Assembly: GCA_045658925.1 (NCBI GenBank)
Contig: JAZOVV010000002.1
Span: forward strand, 5,621-69,620
Direction: 5' to 3'
Length of the DNA stretch: 64,000 nucleotides
DNA from: Eubacteriales bacterium
GTDB taxonomy: Bacteria; Bacillota; Clostridia; Oscillospirales; CAG-272
Made by a program: the position numbers and the translations under genes
Shown: positions 48,856 through 61,880 of the stretch, piece after piece
Numbering within the stretch: position 1 is the first letter of the stretch
Layout: each line of letters starts with the position of its first letter
The notes under the pieces: generated by a model
The model's input: only the letters and a program-made list of their open reading frames with translations
Databases searched by the model: none
What the model was told of the DNA's origin: nothing

Positions 48856-49626
48856 ATGGAAGATAGCAAATATTTAGAAGTGCGCGGCCTTTGTAAGAGC
48901 TTTGGCAACGTTAACGTGCTCAAGGGAGTGGATTTTTCACTCGGGCGCGGCGAAATTTTAACCATTATCGGTTCATCCGGTAGCGGCAAGACGACATTGC
49001 TCCGTTGCTTAAACTTTTTGGAGCTTGCCGATGCAGGTACAATCTCCGTCGCCGGTGAAGAACTCTTTGACGGAGAACGATTCAAGCAGAAGAAAATCAA
49101 AGAGTCGCAGCTGCGTGATAAACGCTTGCGTTTTGGCTTGGTGTTCCAATCCTTCAACCTGTTTCCGCAATACACGGTGCTCAAAAACGTAATGCTCGCC
49201 CCCAAATTGCTCAAAAAGGGAAGCAAGCAAGAGCTTGAAGAAAAGGCAAAACAACTCATTGCCAGCGTAGGACTTTCTGATAAGGTCGATGCCTATCCTT
49301 TCCAACTTTCGGGCGGTCAGCAGCAGCGTGTTTCCATCGCTCGAGCATTGGCACTCGAACCCGACATCCTCTGCTTTGACGAGCCGACCTCAGCGCTCGA
49401 TCCCGAGCTCACGGTTGAGGTTTTGCGCGTTATCAAGGATTTGAAAAAGACGGGTAAAACAATGGTTATCGTTACCCACGAAATGGAATTTGCCCGCAAT
49501 GTTTCCGACCGTGTAATTTACATGCGCGATGGCATTATTGAGGCACAGGGGACTCCCGAGGAAGTCTTTGACAATCCCAAAAACGAGCATCTGCAGCAGT
49601 TTCTCAATAGTGGAAAGGCGATTTAA
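48856..49626 (+). CDS. Amino-acid ABC transporter ATP-binding protein
   Basis: Walker A GSSGSGKTT, signature LSGGQQQRV, Walker B ILCFDEPTSALD. Confidence 0.92.
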   Translation: MEDSKYLEVRGLCKSFGNVNVLKGVDFSLGRGEILTIIGSSGSGKTTLLRCLNFLELADAGTISVAGEELFDGERFKQKKIKESQLRDKRLRFGLVFQSFNLFPQYTVLKNVMLAPKLLKKGSKQELEEKAKQLIASVGLSDKVDAYPFQLSGGQQQRVSIARALALEPDILCFDEPTSALDPELTVEVLRVIKDLKKTGKTMVIVTHEMEFARNVSDRVIYMRDGIIEAQGTPEEVFDNPKNEHLQQFLNSGKAI

Positions 49627-49632
49627 AAGTAA

Positions 49633-49673
49633 AAATGCAAAAAGCTCTTACGTGAGCTTTTTGCATTTTTTTT
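49633..49673 (+). terminator. Terminator after the ABC operon
   Basis: AAATGCAAAAAGCTC/GAGCTTTTTGCATTT stem, loop TTACGT, T-run. Confidence 0.75.
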
Positions 49674-49716
49674 GAAAAAAACACGCAAAAAATATGCAAA
49701 AATTATGAAAAAACTC

Positions 49717-49745
49717 TTGACAAATCAAAAAAACAAGCGTATAAT
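49717..49745 (+). promoter_or_regulatory. Consensus SigA promoter P1 driving the aromatic mini-ORF
   Basis: TTGACA (49717..49722), exactly 17 nt, TATAAT (49740..49745). Confidence 0.6.
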
Positions 49746-49778
49746 GTGACACAACAAATCACAAAAGGAGGCACAGCC

Positions 49779-49853
49779 ATGTTTGCAAGCAAGTTTTATT
49801 ACTTTTATATGTTTCATATGGGCTGCCCGAATTTTGTGAAGGTCGAAAAATAA
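49779..49853 (+). CDS. 24-aa Phe/Tyr-rich mini-ORF MFASKFYYFYMFHMGCPNFVKVEK (candidate leader peptide)
   Basis: GGAGG (49767..49771) lies 7 nt before the ATG. 5 Phe and 3 Tyr; FYYFYMF run. An 8-bp hairpin TCGAAAAA/TTTTTCGA spans the TAA. Confidence 0.5.
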   Translation: MFASKFYYFYMFHMGCPNFVKVEK

Positions 49854-49884
49854 TCAATTTTTTCGAAAACAAAAATACGGACAG

Positions 49885-49937
49885 TCCGCATCTGTTATGC
49901 TTTTTAGCATAAATAGAGTGCGGATTTTTTGTTTTTT
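49885..49937 (+). terminator. Intrinsic terminator downstream of the mini-ORF (candidate attenuator)
   Basis: TCCGCA/TGCGGA, TCT/AGA and TTATGCT/AGCATAA stems (49885..49924), followed by TTTTTTGTTTTTTG. Confidence 0.65.
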
Positions 49938-49970
49938 GTGATGGTTGATATCATTTTTCTTTCAATCTAC

Positions 49971-50000
49971 TTGACAATCGCACGTACACACGTGTATAAT
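49971..50000 (+). promoter_or_regulatory. Second consensus promoter P2 immediately upstream of the aro operon
   Basis: TTGACA (49971..49976), 18 nt, TATAAT (49995..50000). The spacer contains the inverted repeat CACGT-acac-ACGTG (49981..49994). Confidence 0.55.
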
Positions 50001-50040: not shown

Positions 50041-51234
50041 ATGGTAAACGAAAAAATGAGAGGCCTTGGCGCGTGTCGCTCGGTCATCAGAGAATTATTT
50101 GAATACGGCAAAAAGAGAAAAGCAGAGATTGGAGCTGAAAACGTTTTTGATTTCAGTATTGGCAACCCGAGCGTTCCGTCTCCCGCTATTGTAAACGAAA
50201 CCTTGACAAAGTTGATTGCCGAACGTGATGCCGTCTCTCTGCACGGCTACACGAGTGCGCAAGGCGATGCAGGTGTTCGCGCAGCGATTGCCGACTATAT
50301 CAATGCCACTCACAACGCTCATGCAGATTCCAATTTGATTTATCTCACCGTCGGCGCGGCGGCTTCCTTAACGATTTCGCTTTCCGCTCTTACCGAGGCA
50401 GGGGATGAGGTCATCTTACTCGCTCCTTTCTTCCCGGAGTACCGCGTGTTTGTGGAGCGCAACGGTGCTGTTGCCGTTCCCGTTTTGTGCAACACCAAGA
50501 CCTTCCAACCCGACCTTGACGCCATCCGCGCGGCCATCACACCCAAAACACGTGCCATTATCGTCAACTCTCCCAACAATCCCACGGGTGCGGTGATGAC
50601 AAAAGAGAGCATTGAGGGACTTTCCGCACTTCTCTGTGAAGCATCCAAAGAGAACGGACAACCCATCTACCTCATCGCAGATGAACCTTACCGCGAGCTT
50701 GTTTACGGGGACACCGAGGTTCCGTATTTGCCGCATTATTATGCAAATACGCTCATTTGCTATTCCTTCAGTAAGTCGCTCTCGCTTCCCGGTGAGCGCA
50801 TCGGTTACATTCTTGTCAATCCCGAAGCCGAGGATGCAATCTCTGTTTACCAAGCCGTTTGCGGAGCGGGCAGAGCACTTGGCTTTGTGTGTGCGCCTGC
50901 GCTGTTCCAATATATGATTCCCGCAGTCATTGGCAAGACTGCCGATATTTCCGTTTACGATACCAACCGCCGTTTGCTTTCCGACGCATTGACCTCTTAC
51001 GGCTATGAGGTGGTCAAGCCCGACGGCGCGTTCTATCTTTTCGTTAAGGCACTCGAAGAGAACGCAACGGCATTCTGCGAGAGAGCCAAAGAGTATGAGC
51101 TCCTGCTCGTTGCAAGCGATAGCTTCGGCTGTCCCGGGTACGTGCGCATTTCTTATTGCGTCACCACCGAACAAATTCAAAAATCTCTGCCTGCCTTCAA
51201 GGCTTTGGCAGAATCCTACCAAACGGAGAAATAA
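50041..51234 (+). CDS. PLP-dependent (aspartate/aromatic) aminotransferase, class I
   Basis: 397 aa; SFSKSLSLPGERIGY contains the PLP lysine motif (SxSK). First gene of the aro cluster. Confidence 0.88.
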   Translation: MVNEKMRGLGACRSVIRELFEYGKKRKAEIGAENVFDFSIGNPSVPSPAIVNETLTKLIAERDAVSLHGYTSAQGDAGVRAAIADYINATHNAHADSNLIYLTVGAAASLTISLSALTEAGDEVILLAPFFPEYRVFVERNGAVAVPVLCNTKTFQPDLDAIRAAITPKTRAIIVNSPNNPTGAVMTKESIEGLSALLCEASKENGQPIYLIADEPYRELVYGDTEVPYLPHYYANTLICYSFSKSLSLPGERIGYILVNPEAEDAISVYQAVCGAGRALGFVCAPALFQYMIPAVIGKTADISVYDTNRRLLSDALTSYGYEVVKPDGAFYLFVKALEENATAFCERAKEYELLLVASDSFGCPGYVRISYCVTTEQIQKSLPAFKALAESYQTEK

Positions 51235-51236
51235 AA

Positions 51237-52352
51237 ATGTCCAAGAACAATCAAAACGACCTCTTGACAAAGGCGAGAAACGAAATCAACGAAATCGATG
51301 CCCAAATGGCAGAGCTTTTCGTCCGCCGTATGCGCGCCGCCGCGGAGGTAGCCGCCTATAAAAAGGAGCACGCGCTCCCCATTTTGGATGCCGCTCGCGA
51401 AGAACAGGTCGTACAGAACAACGCAAAGCTCGTTGAGGACGAGACCTTGCGTGAATATTACGTTAATTTCATACGCAACAATATGGCAGTCTCCCGGGCT
51501 TATCAAAGCAGACTGATGGATGGGATGCGTATTGCTTACTGTGGAACAGAGGGCGCATTCGCACATATTGCCGCGGGCAAAATGTTCGTGGGAGCCATTC
51601 GCGTTCCGTACGGCGATTTTACCTCTGCATACCGCGCGGTTGAAGCGGGAGAATGCGACGCCGCTGTTTTGCCGATTGAAAACAGCTACAACGGCGAGGT
51701 AGGGCAGGTTACCGACCTTTTGTTCTCGGGCTCGCTCTACGTCAGCGAAGTCATAGACCTTGCCGTATCGCACGACCTTTTGGTTGTTCCCGGTACACGC
51801 ATCGAGGATATTTGTGAGGTAGTCAGCCATCCGCAGGCACTTGCACAGTGTGCCGAGTACATTCGCAATAACGGTTGGAATACTGCCGAGTATTCTAACA
51901 CGGCACTTGCCGCCAAATACGTGGCGGAAAAGAAAGAAAAAACCGTTGCCGCGATTGCCAGTGAGGAGGCCGCTGAGGTTTTCGGTCTTGAGGTGTTGGC
52001 ACGCAATATCAATGCAAGCCGCAATAATACCACACGCTTTGCCGCACTCTCGCGTGTGGAAAGTCACCGCCATTCCAAACGAATGGGCGAGCATTTCATT
52101 TTGCTCTTTACCGTAAAGCACGAGGCAGGCGCGCTTGCAAAGGCAATAGACATTATCGGTCGATACGGTTTTAATATGCGTACTCTGCGCTCGCGCCCGA
52201 TGAAAGACCTTTTGTGGCAATACTATTTCTACGTAGAAGCCGAGGGCGACGTTTACACCGAAGCGGGTGAATGGATGATGCGTGAATTGGGACTGTTCTG
52301 TGACCGCCTCAAGCTCGCAGGAACCTATTTTAAAGAAAAAAGCAATTCGTAA
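51237..52352 (+). CDS. pheA: Bifunctional chorismate mutase / prephenate dehydratase (P-protein)
   Basis: CM_2 N-domain (NEINEIDAQMAELFVRRM), PDT (IAYCGTEGAFAH), ACT (GALAKAIDIIGRYGFNMRTLRSRP). ATG 51237 lies 2 nt after the upstream stop; the track start 51156 is rejected. Confidence 0.9.
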   Translation: MSKNNQNDLLTKARNEINEIDAQMAELFVRRMRAAAEVAAYKKEHALPILDAAREEQVVQNNAKLVEDETLREYYVNFIRNNMAVSRAYQSRLMDGMRIAYCGTEGAFAHIAAGKMFVGAIRVPYGDFTSAYRAVEAGECDAAVLPIENSYNGEVGQVTDLLFSGSLYVSEVIDLAVSHDLLVVPGTRIEDICEVVSHPQALAQCAEYIRNNGWNTAEYSNTALAAKYVAEKKEKTVAAIASEEAAEVFGLEVLARNINASRNNTTRFAALSRVESHRHSKRMGEHFILLFTVKHEAGALAKAIDIIGRYGFNMRTLRSRPMKDLLWQYYFYVEAEGDVYTEAGEWMMRELGLFCDRLKLAGTYFKEKSNS

Positions 52353-52369
52353 AGAAAGGAGAGAAAACG

Positions 52370-53380
52370 ATGACCTTAAATCTCAATCTGCCAAACGGCG
52401 GATATCCCATTTTTATTGAGCGCGGTGCTATCGACCGTGCGGGTGAGTTGTTTTCTCTTGACCGCCGCGTGCTTATCGTTACCGATAGCGGAGTTCCCGC
52501 AAGCTATGCCAAGCGTGTTGCAGAGCAATGCCAAACGGCACACGTTGTTACTGTTCCCGAAGGGGAGGGAAGCAAAAGCCTTGCAACTCTCGAGCTTCTC
52601 TTGAATGAGATGCTGAAGAACGGCTTTGACCGCACTGATTGTGTTGTGGCGGTTGGCGGCGGTGTTGTAGGTGACCTATCCGGCTTTGCCGCATCCACCT
52701 TTATGCGCGGCATTGATTTTTACAATATTCCCACCACCGTGCTCTCGCAGGTGGATTCATCCATCGGTGGCAAGGTTGCCGTTAATTTTGGCGGTGTCAA
52801 GAACATCGTAGGTGCGTTTTATCAACCCAAAGCGGTTATTGTTGACCCCGAAGTGCTTTCCACACTTCCCAAAAGACAAATTGCCAACGGACTTGCTGAG
52901 GCACTCAAAATGGCTTTGACATCCGATGCAGAGCTTTTTGAAATTTTCGAGCGAGGAGAAGCCCTCGAAAGCGTCGATACTGTGATTGAACGCTCGCTCC
53001 GCATCAAAAAAGCCGTTGTGGAAGAGGACGAAAGGGAGAGCGGCATTCGTCGCATCCTAAACTTTGGTCACACCCTCGGTCACGGAATCGAGGGGGCAAG
53101 CGAGGGAGCACTTTACCACGGCGAATGCGTTGCTATTGGGATGCTCCCAATGTGTTCTCCTGACGTGCGCGCGCGTTTGACTTCCGTTTTGCAATCTCTT
53201 GGACTCCCGACCAAATTCGAGGGAGATATTGAAACTGTTTTGCATTTGACTACACACGATAAAAAATGCGAGGGAACCTCGGTCAACGCAGTGTTCGTTG
53301 ATGCTGTGGGTTCTTACCGCATCCAAAAAATGCCGCTTGCGGAGTGGCAGCAGCACATCCGCGAGCAGATTGGGGGATAA
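52370..53380 (+). CDS. aroB: 3-dehydroquinate synthase
   Basis: VAVGGGVVGDLSGFAA, VDSSIGGKVAVN, HTLGHGIE. Confidence 0.93.
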   Translation: MTLNLNLPNGGYPIFIERGAIDRAGELFSLDRRVLIVTDSGVPASYAKRVAEQCQTAHVVTVPEGEGSKSLATLELLLNEMLKNGFDRTDCVVAVGGGVVGDLSGFAASTFMRGIDFYNIPTTVLSQVDSSIGGKVAVNFGGVKNIVGAFYQPKAVIVDPEVLSTLPKRQIANGLAEALKMALTSDAELFEIFERGEALESVDTVIERSLRIKKAVVEEDERESGIRRILNFGHTLGHGIEGASEGALYHGECVAIGMLPMCSPDVRARLTSVLQSLGLPTKFEGDIETVLHLTTHDKKCEGTSVNAVFVDAVGSYRIQKMPLAEWQQHIREQIGG

Positions 53381-53384
53381 AGCA

Positions 53385-54467
53385 ATGAAAAATACGTTTG
53401 GACAAAGCGTAGCTATCACACTTTTCGGTGAGAGTCACGGTGAATATATCGGCGCGGTGCTGGACGGTCTTGCGCCCGGACTTGCGGTTGACGAAGCCTT
53501 TATCCGCCATCAGCTTTCTCTGCGCCGTCCGCAGGGCAAAATCTCGACCTCGCGCGTCGAGGCAGATGAGTTCCGAATTGTTAGCGGTGTGTTTGAAGGC
53601 AAGACGACGGGAACGCCTTTGTGCATTCTCATTCCCAACACCAACACACGCTCGGGAGATTATACCCACAATATTCCGCGTCCGGGGCACGCCGACTACG
53701 CGGCAGAATGTAAATATCACGGCTACCAAGACTGGCGCGGTGGCGGACATTTTTCCGGTCGCATTACTGCAGCCCTCGTAGCCGCAGGTGCTATTGCAAT
53801 TTCCGTATTGCGACAAAACGGCATTCTTATCGGCACGCATATTTCCCGCATTTCGGATATTTGCGACCGCAAGTTCCATTCTTACGAATCGGATATCGAA
53901 ACCCTTGCCGACCTTACGTTCCCGGTACTCGATTCCGCAAAGGCAGACCTGATGCGCGCTTGCATTGAAGATGCCGCAAGTGAGGGCGACAGTGTTGGCG
54001 GCATTTTGGAGACCGCTATCACAGGACTTCCCGCAGGCATTGGCGAGCCTTGGTTCGATACCGTAGAGGGAATGCTTTCGCACGCGCTTTTCTCCATCCC
54101 CGCAATTAAGGGAGTGGAGTTTGGCACGGGCTTTGGTATGGCAGATTTGCGCGGCAGTCAAGCCAATGACGGCTTGCGTATGCAAAACGGTCGAGTAGTG
54201 ACTACCACCAACCACAACGGCGGCATTAACGGCGGCATTACAAACGGAATGCCCGTTATCTTCCGCTGTGCCGTTAAGCCTACACCGTCCATTTTCGGGG
54301 AGCAGGAAAGTGTTGACCTGACAAGCGGTCAAGACACCACGTTGACTCTTGCAGGCAGACACGACCCCGCCATTATCCACCGTGCACGCGTGGTTGTCGA
54401 TAGCGTGGCCGCACTCGTTTTGTGCGATTTGCTCGCGCTCCGCTTCGGAACGGATTTTCCGAAATAA
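53385..54467 (+). CDS. aroC: Chorismate synthase
   Basis: FGESHG motif (ITLFGESHGEYIGAVLDG), GRHDP; ATG 53385 lies 4 nt after the aroB stop. Confidence 0.93.
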   Translation: MKNTFGQSVAITLFGESHGEYIGAVLDGLAPGLAVDEAFIRHQLSLRRPQGKISTSRVEADEFRIVSGVFEGKTTGTPLCILIPNTNTRSGDYTHNIPRPGHADYAAECKYHGYQDWRGGGHFSGRITAALVAAGAIAISVLRQNGILIGTHISRISDICDRKFHSYESDIETLADLTFPVLDSAKADLMRACIEDAASEGDSVGGILETAITGLPAGIGEPWFDTVEGMLSHALFSIPAIKGVEFGTGFGMADLRGSQANDGLRMQNGRVVTTTNHNGGINGGITNGMPVIFRCAVKPTPSIFGEQESVDLTSGQDTTLTLAGRHDPAIIHRARVVVDSVAALVLCDLLALRFGTDFPK

Positions 54468-54502
54468 ATCCCAATCGAAAACACAGGAAAGGAGGTCACA
54501 GT

Positions 54503-55747
54503 ATGCAGTACGGTCTTATCGGTCAAAAATTGGGGCATAGCTTTTCAAAAGAGATACACGAAATGCTCAAAAGCAACCCCTATGCGCTTATCGAGCTCTC
54601 TCCCAATCAAATCGAAGCGTTTTTGAAGCAAAAGGATTTTTCTGCTATCAACGTGACCATTCCTTACAAAACCGCAGTTATCCCATACCTTTCGCATATC
54701 GACGAGAGTGCAAAAGAAATCGGCGCAGTCAATACGATTGTCAACCGCGATGGGGAACTGTGGGGATACAATACCGATTTTTACGGTCTGTGCGCTCTTA
54801 TCAAGCACGCAAAAATCACACTCCAAAATAAAAAGGTTGCCATTCTCGGCACGGGCGGAACGTCCAAAACCGCTCTTGCGGTTTCCAATTTTCTTGGCGC
54901 AAAAGAGATTTTGGTTGTCAGCCGCCGAGAGGGGAATGGCGTTATCACCTATCAAGAGCTGACAGAGGCACATACCGACGTAGAGGTGCTTATCAACACC
55001 ACTCCCGTAGGAATGTACCCCAATACCGAGGCCACACCCGTCGATATTTCTCGGTTTTTAAATCTTTCGGGTGTTATTGATGCTATCTATAATCCCTTGC
55101 GCACGCAACTTGTTTTGGATGCAAAAAGGCGCGGCATTCCCGCCGAAGGCGGACTGTATATGCTCGTGGCGCAAGCGGTGCGCGCATCCGAACTCTTTTT
55201 GGGCTGCACCTATGAGCCCGATACCGCAGAGCGCATCTATCTCGAGCTTTTCAAAAACACAGAAAACATCGTTCTTTCGGGTATGCCCGGTGCGGGAAAG
55301 AGCACCGTGGGTAAGCTCTTGGCAAACCAAATGGAACGCGCGTTTTTTGACCTTGACGAAGAGATTGTCCGCGTCTCGGGACGTACCATTCCCGAAATTT
55401 TTGCAACCGACGGTGAGCCCGCTTTCCGCGAGTTGGAAACAAGGGTTTTATGCGAGGTTCTTGCCAATCAAAAGGGAATCGTGATTGCCACCGGCGGCGG
55501 TGCTATTTTGAAGGATGAGAATATCGACCTTTTACATCGCAACGGCAAAATCTATTTTATCGACCGACCGTTGGGAGAGCTTCTTCCTACCGAGGACCGA
55601 CCGTTAGCTTCCTCAAAAGAGGACATTTGCAAACGTTACAGGGAACGCTACGAGCGTTACTGTGCAACTGCAGATTATCGCATTGATGCAGATGCAACCG
55701 CACAAGAGGTTGCCCATCGCATCAGAAAGGAGTTTTTAAATCTATGA
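54503..55747 (+). CDS. aroE/aroK: Fused shikimate dehydrogenase / shikimate kinase
   Basis: N-part NVTIPYK, GAVNTIV, GYNTDFYG, GTGGTSK. C-part Walker A GMPGAGKSTVGKLLA. AGGAGG lies before ATG 54503. Confidence 0.9.
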   Translation: MQYGLIGQKLGHSFSKEIHEMLKSNPYALIELSPNQIEAFLKQKDFSAINVTIPYKTAVIPYLSHIDESAKEIGAVNTIVNRDGELWGYNTDFYGLCALIKHAKITLQNKKVAILGTGGTSKTALAVSNFLGAKEILVVSRREGNGVITYQELTEAHTDVEVLINTTPVGMYPNTEATPVDISRFLNLSGVIDAIYNPLRTQLVLDAKRRGIPAEGGLYMLVAQAVRASELFLGCTYEPDTAERIYLELFKNTENIVLSGMPGAGKSTVGKLLANQMERAFFDLDEEIVRVSGRTIPEIFATDGEPAFRELETRVLCEVLANQKGIVIATGGGAILKDENIDLLHRNGKIYFIDRPLGELLPTEDRPLASSKEDICKRYRERYERYCATADYRIDADATAQEVAHRIRKEFLNL

Positions 55748-56193
55748 AACTCTATATCATCAACGGGCCAAGCCTGAACTTTCTGGGCATTCGTGAGCCC
55801 GAGCATTATGGAAATACGACCTACCAAGGTCTGCTCGACCTGATTCATACCCACGCCAATGAATTGGGTATTGTTGTAGAATGTTATCAATCCAATCACG
55901 AGGGAGACCTCGTCGACAAAATACAAGAGGCCTATCTGCAAAAGGCGGATGGCATCATCATCAATCCCGGTGCTTATACGCACACAAGCATAGCACTGTT
56001 GGATGCCGTCAAATCGGTTGGTATTCCCACAGTCGAGGTGCATATCTCCAAGGTGGAACAAAGAGAAGCGTTCCGCCAAATCAGTTATATTCGCGCCGCC
56101 TGTCAAAAGACGATTACAGGAGAAGGACTTGCAGGATATTTGCAGGCGATGGATTTTCTCTGTGAATCACTTTGTCAAGGAGAAAACCAATGA
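55744..56193 (+). CDS. aroQ: Type II 3-dehydroquinate dehydratase
   Basis: INGPSLNFLGIREPEHYG, SNHEGD, INPGAYTHTS; ATGA overlap with the upstream gene. Confidence 0.93.
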   Translation: MKLYIINGPSLNFLGIREPEHYGNTTYQGLLDLIHTHANELGIVVECYQSNHEGDLVDKIQEAYLQKADGIIINPGAYTHTSIALLDAVKSVGIPTVEVHISKVEQREAFRQISYIRAACQKTITGEGLAGYLQAMDFLCESLCQGENQ

Positions 56194-57401
56194 GAGTTCG
56201 CATTTATCCGTCCGTCGCACGCGGATGCGTGAGTGCACCGCCCTCAAAGAGTATGGCACACCGTCTTTTGATTTGTGGCGCCTTGGCGAGCGGTGTGAGC
56301 CGCATTTGCGGTGTATCTGATTGCGAGGACGTACAGGCAACGATTGATTGCTTGCGTGCACTCGGTGCAGAATGTAAAATTGACGATAACACAGTTACTG
56401 TCAAAGGAATTGGTTTCAACAAAATTCCAAGCGCGATATTGCCTTGCCGAGAGAGCGGTAGCACAATGCGTTTTTTGTTGCCTTTGTGCTTGGCTTTCGG
56501 CAAAGAGACCACTCTTGTGGGAGCGCCGTCTCTTTTGAAGCGCCCTATGACCGTTTACCAAGACCTTTTTCGTTCACACAATTTGTCTTTTGAACAAACC
56601 GAGAGCGGTATCACGGTAAAGGGGCAATTAAAAGGAGCGGAATACACACTTCCCGGGGACGTTAGCAGTCAGTTTATCAGCGGTATGCTGTTTGCCCTGA
56701 CACAAGTCGCAGGGGAGAGCGTTTTGCGTATTCTCCCGCCGTTTGAGAGCCGGTCGTACGTTCTTCTCACACTGCAAGCACTCAGCACCTTTGGTGCAGA
56801 GATAGTATGGTTGGATGAAAACACCTTGCGCATTGTGGGTGGCAAGCCGCTGGTGGCGCAAAGCCTTTGCGTTGAGGGAGACTACTCAAACGCCGCGTTT
56901 CTTTCGGCACTCAACGTTTTGGGCGGAGAGGTAAGCGTTACAAATTTGAACCCTGCATCCCTGCAAGGAGACCGCGTTTATACAAAACACTTTGCAAGCC
57001 TTGAGGAAGGGTTTGCCACAATATCCGTTGCCGATTGTCCCGACCTTGCCCCCATTCTGTTTGCTCTTGCGGCAAGGGGAAAGGGAGCAAGATTTATGGA
57101 TACCCGTCGCCTTGCTATCAAGGAGAGTAATCGCGCCGAGGCGATGGCAACCGAGCTTCGCAAATTCGGAACAACCGTCGAGGTGTGCGAGAACGAAGTC
57201 ATTATCACGCCCACCGCATTTGACACCCCCACACAACCCCTTATGGGACACAACGACCATCGCATCGTTATGTCGCTAGCTGTTCTTGCAACCCAAACGG
57301 GTGGCGAAATAGATGGGGCAGAAGCGGTTGCCAAGAGCTATCCCGACTTCTTTGAGCGTTTTGCTTCGCTCGGTATTCAAATACAAGAAATTATCCCCTA
57401 A
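56190..57401 (+). CDS. aroA: 3-phosphoshikimate 1-carboxyvinyltransferase (EPSP synthase)
   Basis: PPSKSMAHR, ESNRAEAM, DHRIVMSLAVLA; ATG 56190 overlaps the aroQ TGA. Confidence 0.93.
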   Translation: MRVRIYPSVARGCVSAPPSKSMAHRLLICGALASGVSRICGVSDCEDVQATIDCLRALGAECKIDDNTVTVKGIGFNKIPSAILPCRESGSTMRFLLPLCLAFGKETTLVGAPSLLKRPMTVYQDLFRSHNLSFEQTESGITVKGQLKGAEYTLPGDVSSQFISGMLFALTQVAGESVLRILPPFESRSYVLLTLQALSTFGAEIVWLDENTLRIVGGKPLVAQSLCVEGDYSNAAFLSALNVLGGEVSVTNLNPASLQGDRVYTKHFASLEEGFATISVADCPDLAPILFALAARGKGARFMDTRRLAIKESNRAEAMATELRKFGTTVEVCENEVIITPTAFDTPTQPLMGHNDHRIVMSLAVLATQTGGEIDGAEAVAKSYPDFFERFASLGIQIQEIIP

Positions 57402-57415
57402 AGGAACGAACCCAA

Positions 57416-58285
57416 ATGAAGCCCTTAGATAAAAACACTAACATATTGATTGTCGGCTTAGGAGTTATCGGCGGCAGCTATGCCCGAGCGCTCAGCCGCA
57501 GCGGTTACTCCGTCCGTTGCATTACAAAGGAGCAAAAGGATATCGACTACGCGCTCTCGCTCGGTATGATCGAGTCGGGCAGCACCGAGGTTACCAAAGA
57601 GACTGTCGAATGGGCGGATCTCGTCATTTTTGCGCTTTACCCTCATGTTTTCGTCGAATGGATCAAGGAATATCAGCATCTTTTCCGTGCGGGAACGCTC
57701 GTCACCGACGTAACGGGCGTTAAGAGCCGCATCGTTGACGAGGTGCAGACTCTCTTGCGCGCCGACGTCGAATTTATTGCCGCGCATCCTATGGCAGGAC
57801 GCGAGAGCAGTGGTGTTGAATATAGCGATGACCATGTATTTCTTGGTGCAAACTATATTATTACGCCTACTGAACGGAATACTCCGGAGGCTATCGAGAC
57901 CTGTCGGTGTCTTGGCGAGGTTCTCGGTTTTGCCCGCATTTGTGAGCTTTCTCCTCAAGAGCACGACCGTATGATTGCTTTTCTTTCACAGCTGACGCAC
58001 TGTATTGCCGTTACGCTGATGACCTCTAATGACTCCCCGATGATGGAACAGTATACGGGAGACTCTTTCCGCGATTTGACGCGCATTGCAAAAATCAACG
58101 ACGTGATGTGGTCGGAGCTGTTCCTTCTCAACCGCGAGGCACTCCTTGCAGAAATGGATGCCTTTGCCAATGAGTTTGACCGTTTTCGCACAATGCTACG
58201 CGAAGAAGACGGGGAAGGAATGCGCGAAACGATGCGTCGCGCAACCGCTCGCCGTATGCTTTTTGATAAACCCAAAACAAAGTAA
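57416..58285 (+). CDS. tyrA: Prephenate dehydrogenase
   Basis: Rossmann ILIVGLGVIGGSYA, AAHPMAG. Confidence 0.88.
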   Translation: MKPLDKNTNILIVGLGVIGGSYARALSRSGYSVRCITKEQKDIDYALSLGMIESGSTEVTKETVEWADLVIFALYPHVFVEWIKEYQHLFRAGTLVTDVTGVKSRIVDEVQTLLRADVEFIAAHPMAGRESSGVEYSDDHVFLGANYIITPTERNTPEAIETCRCLGEVLGFARICELSPQEHDRMIAFLSQLTHCIAVTLMTSNDSPMMEQYTGDSFRDLTRIAKINDVMWSELFLLNREALLAEMDAFANEFDRFRTMLREEDGEGMRETMRRATARRMLFDKPKTK

Positions 58286-58329
58286 TCAGTCTAACCAACG
58301 TTTTTATATACCGAAAGGAGTCCAATATT

Positions 58330-59361
58330 ATGAATATGGAATTCTACCGCAAGCTCCCCATTCCAAAGGATATCAAGGAGGAGTACCCCGTTACCGCATC
58401 TCTCAAGGCAGTAAGAGATGCGTCGGTTGTGGAGTTAAAAAATATATTTGAAGGCAAAAGTGATAAATTTGTTCTCGTGATCGGTCCCTGCTCGGCTGAC
58501 CGCGAGGATGCCGTTATCGATTATATTTCGCGCCTGCGCACCGTACAGGATAAGGTTGCCGACAAGATTATGATCGTTCCGCGTATTTATACGAACAAGC
58601 CCCGCACTACGGGTGCAGGATATAAGGGAATGCTTCATCAACCCGACCCCAATGCCGATCCCGATTTGCTGAAGGGTATTATTGCTATTCGTCGTTTGCA
58701 CCTGCGTGCTCTTTCTGAAACGGGCTTTGGATGTGCCGATGAAATGCTCTATCCCGAAAATCACCGCTATCTTTCCGACCTATTGGCGTATGTTGCGGTT
58801 GGCGCTCGCTCGGTCGAAAATCAACAGCACCGCCTGACGGCAAGCGGCTTGGATATTCCCGTGGGTATGAAAAATCCCACTTGCGGTGACTTGACCGTTA
58901 TGATGAATGCCATCACCGCGGCGCAGAATTCGCATATGTTCCTCTACCGCGGTTGGGAAGTTAAGAGTGCGGGTAACCCTTATGCGCACGCTATTCTGCG
59001 CGGATATGTGGATACAAACGGGCATAGTGCTCCCAACTATCACTTTGAAGATTTGAACCGCACGGCGGATATGTACGCAAAGAGTGGATTGCAAAACCCC
59101 GCAGTCATCGTGGATACAAACCATGCAAACTCGGGTAAGCAGTGCCTTGAGCAGGTGCGTATCGCAAAAGAGGTTATGCACGCTTACCGCTATTCAAACG
59201 ACGTTAAAAAGCTTGTTAAGGGACTGATGATTGAGAGTTATATCGAAGATGGCGCACAAAAGATAGGTGCCAACGAGGTATACGGCAAGTCTATTACCGA
59301 CCCTTGCTTGGGTTGGGAAAAGACCGAGCGTCTCATCTATGACATTGCCGACTTGCTTTAA
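58330..59361 (+). CDS. aroG: 3-deoxy-7-phosphoheptulonate (DAHP) synthase, class I
   Basis: VIGPCS, IYTNKPRTTGAGYKGM, VDTNHANS. Confidence 0.92.
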   Translation: MNMEFYRKLPIPKDIKEEYPVTASLKAVRDASVVELKNIFEGKSDKFVLVIGPCSADREDAVIDYISRLRTVQDKVADKIMIVPRIYTNKPRTTGAGYKGMLHQPDPNADPDLLKGIIAIRRLHLRALSETGFGCADEMLYPENHRYLSDLLAYVAVGARSVENQQHRLTASGLDIPVGMKNPTCGDLTVMMNAITAAQNSHMFLYRGWEVKSAGNPYAHAILRGYVDTNGHSAPNYHFEDLNRTADMYAKSGLQNPAVIVDTNHANSGKQCLEQVRIAKEVMHAYRYSNDVKKLVKGLMIESYIEDGAQKIGANEVYGKSITDPCLGWEKTERLIYDIADLL

Positions 59362-59391: not shown

Positions 59392-60675
59392 ATGGCAGAT
59401 TATAAAATCGAAACAAAATGCGTGCAGGGAGGATATACCCCCGGCAATGGCGAACCCCGTCAAATCCCGATCGTGCAAAGTACGACCTTCCATTACGACA
59501 CAAGTGAAGATATGGCAAAGCTCTTTGACCTTGAGGCATCGGGCTATTTCTATTCTCGCCTGCAAAATCCCACCTGCGACACCGTTGCGGCTAAGATTTG
59601 TGAGCTTGAGGGCGGAACTGCCGCAATGTTGACCTCGTCGGGTCAGGCGGCAAACTTCTATGCCGTATTCAACATTGCCACCTGCGGCGACCACATCGTA
59701 TCGGCTTCCACCATCTACGGTGGAACCTTCAACCTTTTCTCGGTTACTATGAAGAAAATGGGTATTGATTTTACCTTTGTTTCTCCCGATTGCACCGAGG
59801 AGGAGCTTGCGGCTGCTTTCCGTCCCAACACGAAAGCCGTGTTTGGCGAAACCATTGCAAACCCCGCACTCACCGTTCTTGATATCGAAAAATTTGCCAA
59901 GGCGGCTCACGCACACGGTGTACCGCTGATTATCGATAATACCTTTGCTACTCCCATCAACTGCCGTCCATTCGAATGGGGAGCCGACATCGTTACGCAC
60001 TCCACCACCAAGTATATGGACGGTCACGGTGCAGCAGTTGGCGGTTGCATCGTTGATTCCGGCAAGTTTGATTGGATGGCAAATAAAGAAAAATTCCCCG
60101 GACTCTGCACCCCCGACGATAGCTATCACGGTATCGTTTATGCCGAAAAGTTCGGTCAGGGTGGGGCATTCATCACCAAAGCCACCGCACAACTGATGCG
60201 TGACTTCGGCTCTACCCCCGCACCGCAGAGTGCATTTTTGCTGGGACTTGGTCTTGAGAGCCTGCACGTCCGTATGGAACGCCACTGTGCAAACGGTCTT
60301 GCCGTAGCAACATTCCTTAAGAGCCATCCCAACGTCACTTGGGTAACTTACGCAAGCCTTGAGGGCGACAAATACTACGACCTTGCTCAAAAGTATATGC
60401 CGGGGGGCACCTGCGGCGTTGTCAGCTTTGGTGTTAAGGGTGGCAGAAGCGCGGCAGAAAAGTTTATGAAGCACCTTAAGGTTGCCGCAATCGAGACGCA
60501 CGTTGCCGATGCACGCACCTGCTGCCTGCATCCCGCAAGCGCAACCCACAGACAGATGAGCGACGAAGAGCTCCTCGCGGCAGGCGTATCAGGCGACCTT
60601 GTCCGTTACTCCTGCGGCCTTGAAAATGCCGAGGACCTCATCGCAGACCTCAAGCAAGCGCTCGAATCCATCTAA
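59392..60675 (+). CDS. metY: O-acetylhomoserine sulfhydrylase (aminocarboxypropyltransferase)
   Basis: Cys/Met-metabolism PLP family; PLP lysine in HSTTKYMDGHG. 30 nt after aroG with no hairpin. Confidence 0.9.
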   Translation: MADYKIETKCVQGGYTPGNGEPRQIPIVQSTTFHYDTSEDMAKLFDLEASGYFYSRLQNPTCDTVAAKICELEGGTAAMLTSSGQAANFYAVFNIATCGDHIVSASTIYGGTFNLFSVTMKKMGIDFTFVSPDCTEEELAAAFRPNTKAVFGETIANPALTVLDIEKFAKAAHAHGVPLIIDNTFATPINCRPFEWGADIVTHSTTKYMDGHGAAVGGCIVDSGKFDWMANKEKFPGLCTPDDSYHGIVYAEKFGQGGAFITKATAQLMRDFGSTPAPQSAFLLGLGLESLHVRMERHCANGLAVATFLKSHPNVTWVTYASLEGDKYYDLAQKYMPGGTCGVVSFGVKGGRSAAEKFMKHLKVAAIETHVADARTCCLHPASATHRQMSDEELLAAGVSGDLVRYSCGLENAEDLIADLKQALESI

Positions 60676-60711
60676 TTTTTATTTATCATACACGAAGAGG
60701 AGTAGGACAGA

Positions 60712-61659
60712 ATGCCTATTAAAATTCCAAACCAACTGCCTGCAACCAAAACGCTCGCCGAGGAAAACATCTTTGTAATGACCGACGCGCGCGCCGTTGC
60801 GCAAGATATCCGTCCCTTACAGATTCTGATGTTGAATCTGATGCCTACCAAAATTGATACCGAAACTCAGCTCTCCCGTCTTTTGGGTAACACCCCCTTG
60901 CAGGTAGAGTTGACGCTGATGCATACAAGCTCTCACAAATCCAAAAACACCTCTGCCGATCATCTTTTGGCGTTCTATACAACCTTTGATAAGGTCAAGG
61001 AACGCTACTTCGACGGTCTTGTCATCACGGGCGCACCTGTTGAAATGATGGAATTTGAAGAGGTAGAGTATTGGAACGAGCTCTGCGAGATTATGGAGTG
61101 GAGCACTACGCACGTTCATAGCACCTTCCACATTTGTTGGGGCGCGCAGGCAGGACTTTATTACCATTTTGGTGTACAAAAGAAAACGCTCGACAAAAAA
61201 ATGTTTGGCGTATTTCCGCATATTGCCGACTACAAGCGTTCTATGCTGTTCCGTGGCTTTGACGACGTCTTTATGGTGCCGCACTCCCGCCACACCACCA
61301 TCGACCGCGAAGACCTCGAGGGCATTCCCGGTCTCAAAATTCTCGCATCCTCACCCGAGGCAGGGGTTTTTGCACTTTCGACCAAAAAGGGAAGACAGAT
61401 ATTCATCACAGGGCATCCCGAATACGATGCCGAAACCTTGGGGCGTGAATATTGGCGTGACGTAAATGCGGGCAAACCCATCGAAATTCCCAAAAATTAC
61501 TATCCCGATAATGACCCCAATAAGGCACCTGTATCCACTTGGCGTTCCTCTGCCAATCTCCTTTATTGCAACTGGCTCAACTACTTCGTCTACCAGACGA
61601 CACCCTTTGATCTTAACAAAATCAAGGAATCTCACGCCGCCACCGAAGAGCCTGTATAA
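60712..61659 (+). CDS. metA: Homoserine O-acyltransferase (MetA family)
   Basis: LNLMPTK; catalytic Cys in [16 protein letters not shown]. Confidence 0.92.
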
Positions 61660-61880
61660 GACTGCCTGAATTTGCGCAGAACAAAAGCCACATCAAAGGT
61701 CGAATTCGATGCAAATTGAATTCTAAACAAGCTTAATAAAAGGTTGAAATCCACCGAAAGTATCGGTGGATTTCTTCATTATATATAAGTGGCTTTTTAG
61801 ACGCGCTCAACCCCTCTGCCGTACCTTTGTCCGGCGACGAGCGGTCGATCGCGCCTTCTGCATCAAATTGAGGCAGTCTT
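61658..61880. repeat. 24/25-bp imperfect inverted repeat pair flanking about 175 bp
   Basis: Left arm AAGACTGCCTGAATTTGCGCAGAA (61658..61681). The reverse complement of the right arm (61856..61880) is AAGACTGCCTCAATTTGATGCAGAA. The pair encloses the metA terminator hairpin and a GC-rich stretch. Confidence 0.5.
61746..61774 (+). terminator. Hairpin terminator after metA
   Basis: GAAATCCACCGA/TCGGTGGATTTC stem with a weak T tract. Confidence 0.5.

Follow-up and report, generated by a model that had tools for sequence, protein, structure and literature searches.

A 64,000-nucleotide (nt) stretch of DNA from a Eubacteriales bacterium of CAG-272 (GCA_045658925.1, contig JAZOVV010000002.1, positions 5,621 to 69,620 of the forward strand), called the window in the following and numbered by its own positions, contains a short leader module directly upstream of a nine-gene operon for the biosynthesis of phenylalanine (Phe) and tyrosine (Tyr). 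This module is likely a ribosome-mediated transcription attenuator, which reports a shortage of charged tRNA-Phe and tRNA-Tyr. It contains a promoter, a short open reading frame (ORF) with a run of Phe and Tyr codons, and an intrinsic terminator. These parts are conserved in a family of related loci, the leaders are associated with the same operon, and their RNA has three alternative pairings (A:B, B-S-C, and C:D) that are mutually exclusive.

The leader module and its parts

The following parts of the module, and a second promoter that follows it, were assigned in the window, all of them on the plus strand:

49717-49745: promoter P1, with TTGACA at 49717-49722, a 17-nt spacer, and TATAAT at 49740-49745; 12 of 12 consensus positions
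49759-49778: element A, UCACAAAAGGAGGCACAGCC, the 5' strand of the anti-antiterminator hairpin; holds the ribosome-binding site of the leader and abuts its start codon
49765-49771: leader ribosome-binding site AAGGAGG, ending 7 nt before the ATG at 49779
49779-49853: leader ORF of 24 codons plus stop, encoding MFASKFYYFYMFHMGCPNFVKVEK
49794-49814: regulatory codons 6 to 12, UUU UAU UAC UUU UAU AUG UUU (F Y Y F Y M F), the proposed stall site
49818-49839: element B, AUGGGCUGCCCGAAUUUUGUGA, with A (anti-antiterminator) or C (antiterminator) as partner
49843-49866: hairpin S, UCGAAAAA (49843-49850) and UUUUUCGA (49859-49866), the apical part of the antiterminator
49869-49887: element C, ACAAAAAUACGGACAGUCC, the 3' strand of the predicted antiterminator; with the 5 nt at its end (49883-49887) it provides the base of the 5' arm of the terminator
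49883-49937: intrinsic terminator, with the stem at 49883-49926 and the U-run T6-G-T6 at 49925-49937
49971-50000: promoter P2, with TTGACA at 49971-49976, an 18-nt spacer, and TATAAT at 49995-50000; 12 of 12 consensus positions, downstream of the terminator

An A-rich tract is located upstream of P1, and transcription from this promoter is predicted to start at about 49751 to 49753. The leader peptide contains five Phe and three Tyr residues among its 24 residues and no Trp; six of the seven residues in the run FYYFYMF are aromatic, and a further Phe is encoded by codon 2. This composition matches the operon, because the operon makes Phe and Tyr but not Trp. Among 2,870 small ORFs of 10 to 50 codons on both strands of the 64-kb window, 410 of which have a ribosome-binding site, the leader ORF was the only one that combined such a site with six aromatic residues in a run of seven. 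Its last three sense codons form the 5' arm of hairpin S, and its UAA stop codon (49851-49853) provides the first three bases of the loop. The whole leader (49752-49945) folds with −60.3 kcal/mol (z = −6.4 versus dinucleotide shuffles), and the terminator segment (49860-49945) with −31.3 kcal/mol (z = −6.6 versus shuffles). The ATG of the first operon gene at 50041 is located 103 nt after the U-run. Between them lies P2, the spacer of which contains the palindrome CACGT-ACAC-ACGTG at 49981-49994.

Much of this had been read before from the same DNA. An earlier note had described P1 as a consensus TTGACA-17-TATAAT promoter with a GGAGG ribosome-binding site, had counted eight aromatic residues among 24 and six of seven in FYYFYMF, and had noticed P2 with a CACGT-n4-ACGTG palindrome in its spacer, all of which are present at these positions. 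The hairpin reported to span the stop codon is hairpin S, with the stop in its loop. The terminator, given as 49885 to 49937, was essentially right, as was the distance of about 100 nt to the operon. The architecture of leader-peptide attenuation that was read from these parts is now supported by the presence of a conserved aromatic run in front of the same Phe/Tyr/shikimate operon in related loci.

A family of leaders with a common anatomy

Related loci were collected in two ways. A scan of one genome per GTDB species for homologues of the aminotransferase encoded by the first operon gene gave 80 loci, and in 16 of these the aminotransferase gene is closely preceded by a short ORF that has a ribosome-binding site and contains an aromatic run. 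Metagenome contigs were scanned with a DNA pattern built solely from the 5' part of the leader ORF, which gave 51 matches. The full downstream anatomy was present in 22 of them; the remaining matches, about half of the 51, were without the downstream elements and were dropped as chance matches. The resulting family consists of 38 loci, the window and 37 others, with 32 distinct sequences, and these 32 sequences were used for the comparisons of pairing, energy, and anatomy. A regular expression for B, C, and D, run over the window and 1.05 Mb of loci for extra copies, matched known leader sites only; the window copy itself misses the last term of this expression (CGGA instead of CRGG).

The aminotransferase gene directly follows the leader in all 21 metagenome copies with downstream sequence, and pheA, aroB, aroC, aroEK, and aroQ come next in the same order wherever the contig is long enough. 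In each of the 32 sequences, a promoter TTGAC(A/T) with a spacer of 16 to 17 nt and TAnAAT, the end of which is 31 to 35 nt away from the start codon, is followed by a ribosome-binding site and by an ORF of 20 to 26 codons that starts with ATG, GTG, or TTG and contains 6 to 10 Phe plus Tyr codons and no Trp codon. A distance of only 74 to 115 nt separates the stop codon from the ATG of the aminotransferase gene in 36 of the 38 loci, and the terminator of these leaders extends directly to the ribosome-binding site of this gene. Since the terminator abuts this site, these loci have no space for a second promoter.

The aromatic core is the best-conserved part of the leader ORF. Examples of the peptides are MFANKFSYYFYYFAKGCPTFVKSEM (L004), MFVKSYFRFYYFTKADCLYTCEA (L031), MFGCVNYRFYYFKTDCLYACKA (L044), MLRNIKFRFFYYKKGLSVCRNCF (L054), and MFNYVFKFYFFTKGLSVCRESCLNFK (L070). 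The comparative alignment that the earlier note had suggested as a check revealed an aromatic run kept as amino acids in five subtypes, with varying order and nucleotides and with insertions or deletions in multiples of 3. It reads KFYYFYMF in the window, KFSYYFYYF in L004, and YFRFYYF, NYRFYYF, KFRFFYY, or YVFKFYFF in others, and synonymous changes are found at F2 and Y11.

A CGA Arg codon within the aromatic run (F/Y-R-F-Y-Y) is invariant in most subtypes (leader ORFs L022 to L135, alignment A3, columns 57 to 70) and absent from the leaders of the window, L004, and L070. This codon may act as a rare-codon pause, as part of an RNA structure, or by an effect of the nascent peptide.

Element B is conserved in a different manner. 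All 32 sequences share the invariant core GGnCUGnCnG. Most members translate this core as D-C-L-Y and the window translates it as G-C-P; in L054, L058, and L070 it is read one base out of frame, as G-L-S-V-C. Because the core is read in two frames among the subtypes, element B is conserved as RNA and not as peptide, and this argues against a plain small-protein gene. The leader ORFs do not show the conservation of one frame along the full peptide that is expected of a small-protein gene: only the aromatic run is conserved as protein, and the length varies between 20 and 26 residues.

Three competing pairings

In the minimum-energy fold of the leader, A pairs with 49821-49839 and forms the hairpin A:B (49759-49839), which encloses the aromatic codons. 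Across the 32 sequences, 91.7% of this pairing is formed, a value that was not reached in any of 500 column shuffles, and both partners have changed in four pairs. Registers slid along the alignment gave 27 to 50%, and RNAalifold independently recovered the outer helix of A:B. In the terminator, C:D, five pairs at the base of the stem have undergone compensatory changes within the family.

The earlier note had found no convincing antiterminator helix. A candidate for such a helix exists nevertheless, at 49820-49887, and it is present in the same register in all 32 sequences; it came to light through truncated co-transcriptional folds together with the comparative alignment. The hairpin B-S-C has an energy of −24.9 kcal/mol (z = −4.6) and is the minimum-energy fold of a nascent RNA cut at 49905. 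In the window, B and C are connected by the helices GGGCUG:CAGUCC, CCG:CGG, and UUUUGU:ACAAAA, with S at the tip. With the register fixed, most sequences form pairs at 12 of 15 positions, and 77.9% of the cells are paired compared to 19 to 36% after sliding by 1 to 3 columns; the register was taken from one family member and is favored over the slid controls for this reason. RNAalifold recovered the B:C helix from a separate alignment of the B-C region. The energy of B-S-C is between −17 and −27 kcal/mol in all 32 sequences, and that of the terminators is comparable, −17 to −29 kcal/mol. When the 5' region was masked to simulate the stalling of a ribosome at an aromatic codon, B-S-C was part of the minimum-energy fold in all 32 sequences for each stall position up to about codon 10. 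B-S-C would exclude both the A:B hairpin and the base of the terminator, and the same three-way competition is found in each of the 32 sequences.

A hairpin that contains or abuts the stop codon exists in 31 of the 32 sequences, with at least eight different stem sequences. They include the window stem UCGAAAAA/UUUUUCGA, AAAGCUU/AAGCUUU, AAUUGUUU/AAACAAU, AAGCA/UGCUU, and AAAGCAUAAU/AUUGUGUUU. The fold energies of S, assessed for each sequence separately, are mostly 1.5 to 5 standard deviations below those of shuffles. Since the sequence of S diverges too much to be aligned, RNAalifold on MAFFT alignments missed this hairpin.

Proposed mechanism of attenuation

That the ribosome stalls, in which order the RNA folds, and how large the regulatory effect is are inferred from these parts, and the events may be as follows. 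Transcription from P1 would produce a leader RNA of about 180 nt. With Phe and Tyr in plentiful supply, the first ribosome would pass the F/Y codons, proceed to the stop codon, melt hairpin S, and sit between B and C. The A:B hairpin would close behind this ribosome, C would pair with D, and transcription would be terminated at 49925-49937. In a leader that is not translated, A:B would form and hide the leader's own ribosome-binding site, with termination as the default. When Phe or Tyr is scarce, the ribosome would stall at codon 2 or at codons 6 to 12, which are within the loop of A:B, and A:B would be blocked. B, S, and C may then fold into one hairpin (49820-49887) before D has been made. 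This would leave the terminator without its G/C-rich base by the U-run, and RNA polymerase would read into the operon.

A number of points weigh against this interpretation and need to be considered. The B:C pairing is without a covariation signal: 499 of 500 partner shuffles reach the observed pairing, and only two pairs are changed on both sides. The signal is absent because the B:C columns are nearly invariant. The evidence for the predicted antiterminator is thus conserved complementarity plus energy, and that from covariation concerns the A:B hairpin and the terminator. Full-length equilibrium folds retain the terminator under every ribosome-sized mask, which means that the model needs co-transcriptional kinetics. 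The stems of antiterminator and terminator overlap by only 5 to 7 nt, and by 5 nt in the window (49883-49887); these nucleotides form the G/C-rich pairs beside the U-run. A ribosome at the stop codon covers little of B, so that it would have to block B:C by steric hindrance, and prevention of A:B by the stalled ribosome is likewise suggested by the geometry of the leader. Finally, P2 with its perfect consensus is located downstream of the terminator and can drive the operon alone, and, of the 12 closest relatives fetched, 10 do not have the P1-leader-terminator module.

P2 and the patchy presence of the module among close relatives

The relatives without the leader are very similar to the window. 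The identity of the aminotransferase is 93% in L001 to L003, 92% in L139, 91% in L084, and 80 to 85% in L081 to L083, L085, and L086 to L087. The gene order is the same in these loci, and the intergenic region has a length of only 141 to 222 nt, composed of the terminator of the upstream ATP-binding cassette (ABC) gene and, directly thereafter, a P2-like promoter. P2 is kept in all five close relatives that were aligned with the window. It is conserved in L001 to L004, and a similar promoter is present in the leaderless loci L081, L084, L085, and L086. Only the window and L004 carry the P1-leader-terminator module of about 250 nt, which is located upstream of P2 in both. A bypass of the terminator by P2, raised as a caveat in the earlier note, is therefore a real issue and a stronger one than it had appeared.

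The window sequence past the leader terminator aligns with the sequence past the ABC-gene terminator in the relatives (window 49627-49970 compared to L001 to L003, L081 to L087, and L139). Since these post-terminator sequences align, the insertion or deletion of the module runs from terminator to terminator. A neighbor-joining tree of the aminotransferases groups the remaining loci with a leader in a single clade, 14 of the 16 tips of which have one; the window and L004 stand alone in a distant, otherwise leaderless clade. The two leaderless exceptions in the leader-bearing clade, L021 (691) and L056 (4001), have a rearranged context, in which the aminotransferase gene starts about 15 nt after another gene.

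Starting from this distribution, the attenuator family might be real and the copy in the window a bypassed add-on, with the operon being transcribed essentially from P2 and the module perhaps merely insulating P2 from upstream transcription. This is unlikely, although it has to be taken seriously. P2 matches the consensus in 12 of 12 positions after the terminator and is conserved in L001 to L004, similar promoters precede the operon in L081, L084, L085, and L086, and relatives with 80 to 93% aminotransferase identity (L001 to L003, L081 to L087, and L139) do without the module, leaving the window and L004 as the only leader-bearing tips of their clade. On the other hand, the module is fully intact in the window, with P1, ribosome-binding site, ORF, and the A:B, B-S-C, and terminator pairings all present, and nothing terminates a read-through from P1 before the operon. 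A comparison of the window with L004 also speaks against a relic. The aromatic run survives the insertion or deletion of a codon (3 nt), the fold of S is kept with a different sequence, and A:B is kept through G-U changes. These differences, which preserve run, S, and A:B, indicate continued selection and a module that is not decaying. The attenuator in this genome would most likely add a starvation-gated read-through from the very strong P1 to the output of P2.

How the module came to its position can be outlined only tentatively. The promoter-leader-terminator may be a transferable cassette, which was ancestral and the sole promoter of the operon in Acutalibacteraceae and allies and which was acquired in the lineage of the window upstream of a pre-existing strong P2. 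This might have resulted in a parallel dual control, by a constitutive or repressor-controlled P2 and a starvation-gated P1, with a dual sensor for Phe and Tyr in which the anti-antiterminator also sequesters the leader's own ribosome-binding site.

The spacer of P2 (49977-49994) was compared with that of L004, L001 to L003, and L084. Several close relatives keep a GC-rich, partly palindromic spacer with alternating purines and pyrimidines in other sequences, for instance CACGCATGCGTG in L004, ACACGCACGTGT in L001, and TCGCACGCGA in L002; the spacers of the P2-like promoters in L081, L085, and L086 are AT-rich. The palindrome in the P2 spacer could be a candidate operator for a repressor acting on P2.

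Alternative sensors or a small gene

The switch might be set by something other than charged tRNA. One example of this kind is TnaC, with nascent-peptide arrest that senses free Trp. A comparable arrest that responds to free Phe or Tyr in the exit tunnel, or a protein or uncharged tRNA that binds to the leader RNA, would be in line with the aromatic core being the best-conserved stretch of the ORF and with R-F-Y-Y, together with its fixed CGA Arg codon, showing no variation among the members of three of the five subtypes, third codon positions included. The leaders of the window, L004, and L070, however, are aromatic-rich without the Arg residue and the RFYY order, synonymous changes occur at F2 and Y11, and neither a T-box nor another known RNA family was matched. 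Induction by shortage is moreover what a biosynthetic operon requires, and ribosomes that stall because charged tRNA is lacking would provide it directly, so that another kind of sensor appears improbable.

It is even harder to believe that the module is an independent small gene for a hydrophobic peptide of 24 residues or a small RNA, incidentally positioned beside the aromatic operon: the strong promoter and strong terminator of its own, the second promoter thereafter, and a peptide with a hydrophobic N terminus and a charged C terminus would fit, but the same operon follows the family leaders in the same orientation across two distant clades, the terminator abuts the ribosome-binding site of the first gene in 36 loci that have no second promoter, the C-terminal half is not conserved as protein in these peptides of 20 to 26 residues while the nucleotides of B appear in two frames, and alternative pairings that are conserved serve no purpose in a plain peptide gene.

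Relation to known attenuators

Rfam (release 15) was searched with the window at the gathering threshold, with its leader region at E values up to 10, with 28 related loci (12 leader-bearing and 16 leaderless) at the gathering threshold, and with the leader region of L044 at E values up to 1. No leader, T-box, riboswitch, or other family was found at the gathering threshold at this operon in the window and the 28 related loci, and the leader region of L044 gave no leader, T-box, or riboswitch family at E values up to 1. A T-box was not matched around the leader at E values up to 10, nor in the 12 leader-bearing and 16 leaderless loci at the gathering threshold. The only match to Phe_leader (RF01859), with 21.4 bits compared to a gathering threshold of 55 and with E = 1.2, was on the minus strand at 49635-49707, outside the leader and in the A/T-rich terminator of the upstream gene. 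This and the weak matches to mir-4520 and U12 were rejected as hairpins or low-complexity artifacts. An A/T-rich triple repeat of TGCAAAAA just upstream of P1 is the origin of the spurious matches to mir-4520 (E = 0.00035) and to Phe_leader on the minus strand.

Leader-peptide attenuators are textbook knowledge in Proteobacteria. In Firmicutes they have been reported only sporadically, because T-boxes, TRAP, and protein repressors dominate there. No account of a Phe/Tyr leader in front of this operon in Clostridia was found in the literature, the coverage of which was incomplete, so that this is not proof of novelty. The family is apparently undescribed and mechanistically ordinary, and it occurs in uncultured gut Clostridia.

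The leaders of pheL-pheA and pheM-pheST of Escherichia coli contain Phe codons and mutually exclusive 1:2, 2:3, and 3:4 pairings, and stalling controlled by charged tRNA leads to read-through (PMC11802643). They share with the family a short Phe-rich ORF in front of a Phe-pathway gene, followed by an intrinsic terminator, and mutually exclusive pairings are predicted for the family as well. There is no similarity in sequence or model, however, the codons of the family are a mixture of Phe and Tyr, and the host belongs to the Clostridia and not to the proteobacteria. The anatomy is also different: the regulatory codons are in the loop of the first hairpin and not in its 5' strand, this hairpin sequesters the leader's own ribosome-binding site, and the stop codon is part of the hairpin at the tip of the predicted antiterminator.

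A leader of shikimate-pathway genes in which Phe and Tyr codons are mixed is also known in aroR of Corynebacterium glutamicum. The aroR leader (Phe-Tyr-Phe) controls aroF by attenuation and, as cited in a later account, responds to Phe and not to Tyr (Neshat et al. 2014, via PMC11802643). Compared by its description, aroR differs in its host, which belongs to the Actinobacteria, in its target, a 3-deoxy-D-arabino-heptulosonate 7-phosphate (DAHP) synthase only versus a nine-gene operon, and in its much shorter aromatic run. uORFC-13-1, a predicted upstream ORF in front of aroF in Acholeplasma and some environmental sequences, has a U-run that codes for at least one Phe (PMC8632094). The succession of promoter, ribosome-binding site, Phe codons, and intrinsic terminator before a shikimate-pathway gene is alike, and the lineage is related to Firmicutes. 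uORFC-13-1 is, again compared by description, restricted to Acholeplasma and some environmental sequences and to aroF, and no Rfam model matched the window or the relatives, which gives no support to an identity of the two. Firmicutes leader-peptide attenuators, described as rare, are known for His (PMC2965389, PMC9413887) and Leu (PMC5314783). These, including the leu/phe leader of Lactococcus in Rfam, have the proposed mechanism, the phylum, and the sporadic, lineage-specific occurrence in common with the family, but they serve another amino acid and other operons, and no sequence relationship was detected in the Rfam searches.

Operon and genomic context

The genes of the operon were assigned by Pfam and NCBIfam scans. 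The features surrounding the leader module are:

49631-49670: terminator of the upstream ABC ATPase gene
50041-59361, plus strand: operon of nine genes
50041-51234, plus strand: class I/II aminotransferase (NCBIfam PRK06836), the first operon gene
57416-58285, plus strand: prephenate dehydrogenase
58330-59361, plus strand: DAHP synthase

The aminotransferase gene is followed, in this order, by the genes for chorismate mutase/prephenate dehydratase, aroB, aroC, an aroE-aroK fusion, aroQ, aroA, prephenate dehydrogenase, and DAHP synthase. The operon thus encodes all steps that lead from DAHP to Phe and Tyr and does not include the Trp branch. An exact look-up of the aminotransferase sequence of the window gave no record; many homologues exist in uncultured Clostridia of animal and human guts.

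The aroE-aroK fusion (54422-55747) unites the N-terminal domain of shikimate dehydrogenase and shikimate kinase in one ORF, and the same arrangement is found in related loci. The mechanically determined ORF for chorismate mutase/prephenate dehydratase has a TTG start and overlaps with the aminotransferase gene by 79 nt (51156-51234). In the relatives, the gene calls start 3 to 5 nt past the aminotransferase stop and give products of 370 to 375 residues, and because of these calls the true start is probably near 51237.

The upstream neighbors encode an ABC transporter for polar amino acids (binding protein, permease, and ATPase), with the ATPase gene ending at 49626. The 3' arm of the terminator at 49631-49670 has an alternative pairing with the third copy of the TGCAAAAA motif, at 49686-49702. 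On the other side, metY for O-acetylhomoserine sulfhydrylase (59392-60675) starts 30 nt after the DAHP synthase gene and is followed by metA (60712-61659). There is no terminator-like site on the plus strand between the DAHP synthase gene and 61746-61774, and Rfam indicated neither an S-adenosylmethionine riboswitch nor a T-box in the metY-metA stretch (59392-61774). Transcription of the aromatic operon may extend into the methionine genes.

Implications

The leader family is a new one within a well-known kind of regulator, and what is odd about the window copy is that it stands in tandem with a conserved promoter downstream of it and that very close relatives possess the module only patchily. 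Annotation pipelines miss it, because it is absent from Rfam 15 and because gene callers skip ORFs as short as these. To the sporadic reports of such attenuators in Firmicutes, it adds 38 loci from animal- and human-gut metagenomes that would control the whole pathway from DAHP to Phe and Tyr in abundant, uncultured gut Clostridia, and in which one leader peptide appears to read two amino acids. A module that is patchily present among operons with 91 to 93% identity, and upstream of a promoter that has been retained, represents a natural experiment on the gain or loss of an attenuator. The family would also offer a compact Phe/Tyr-responsive part for the engineering of anaerobic Firmicutes.

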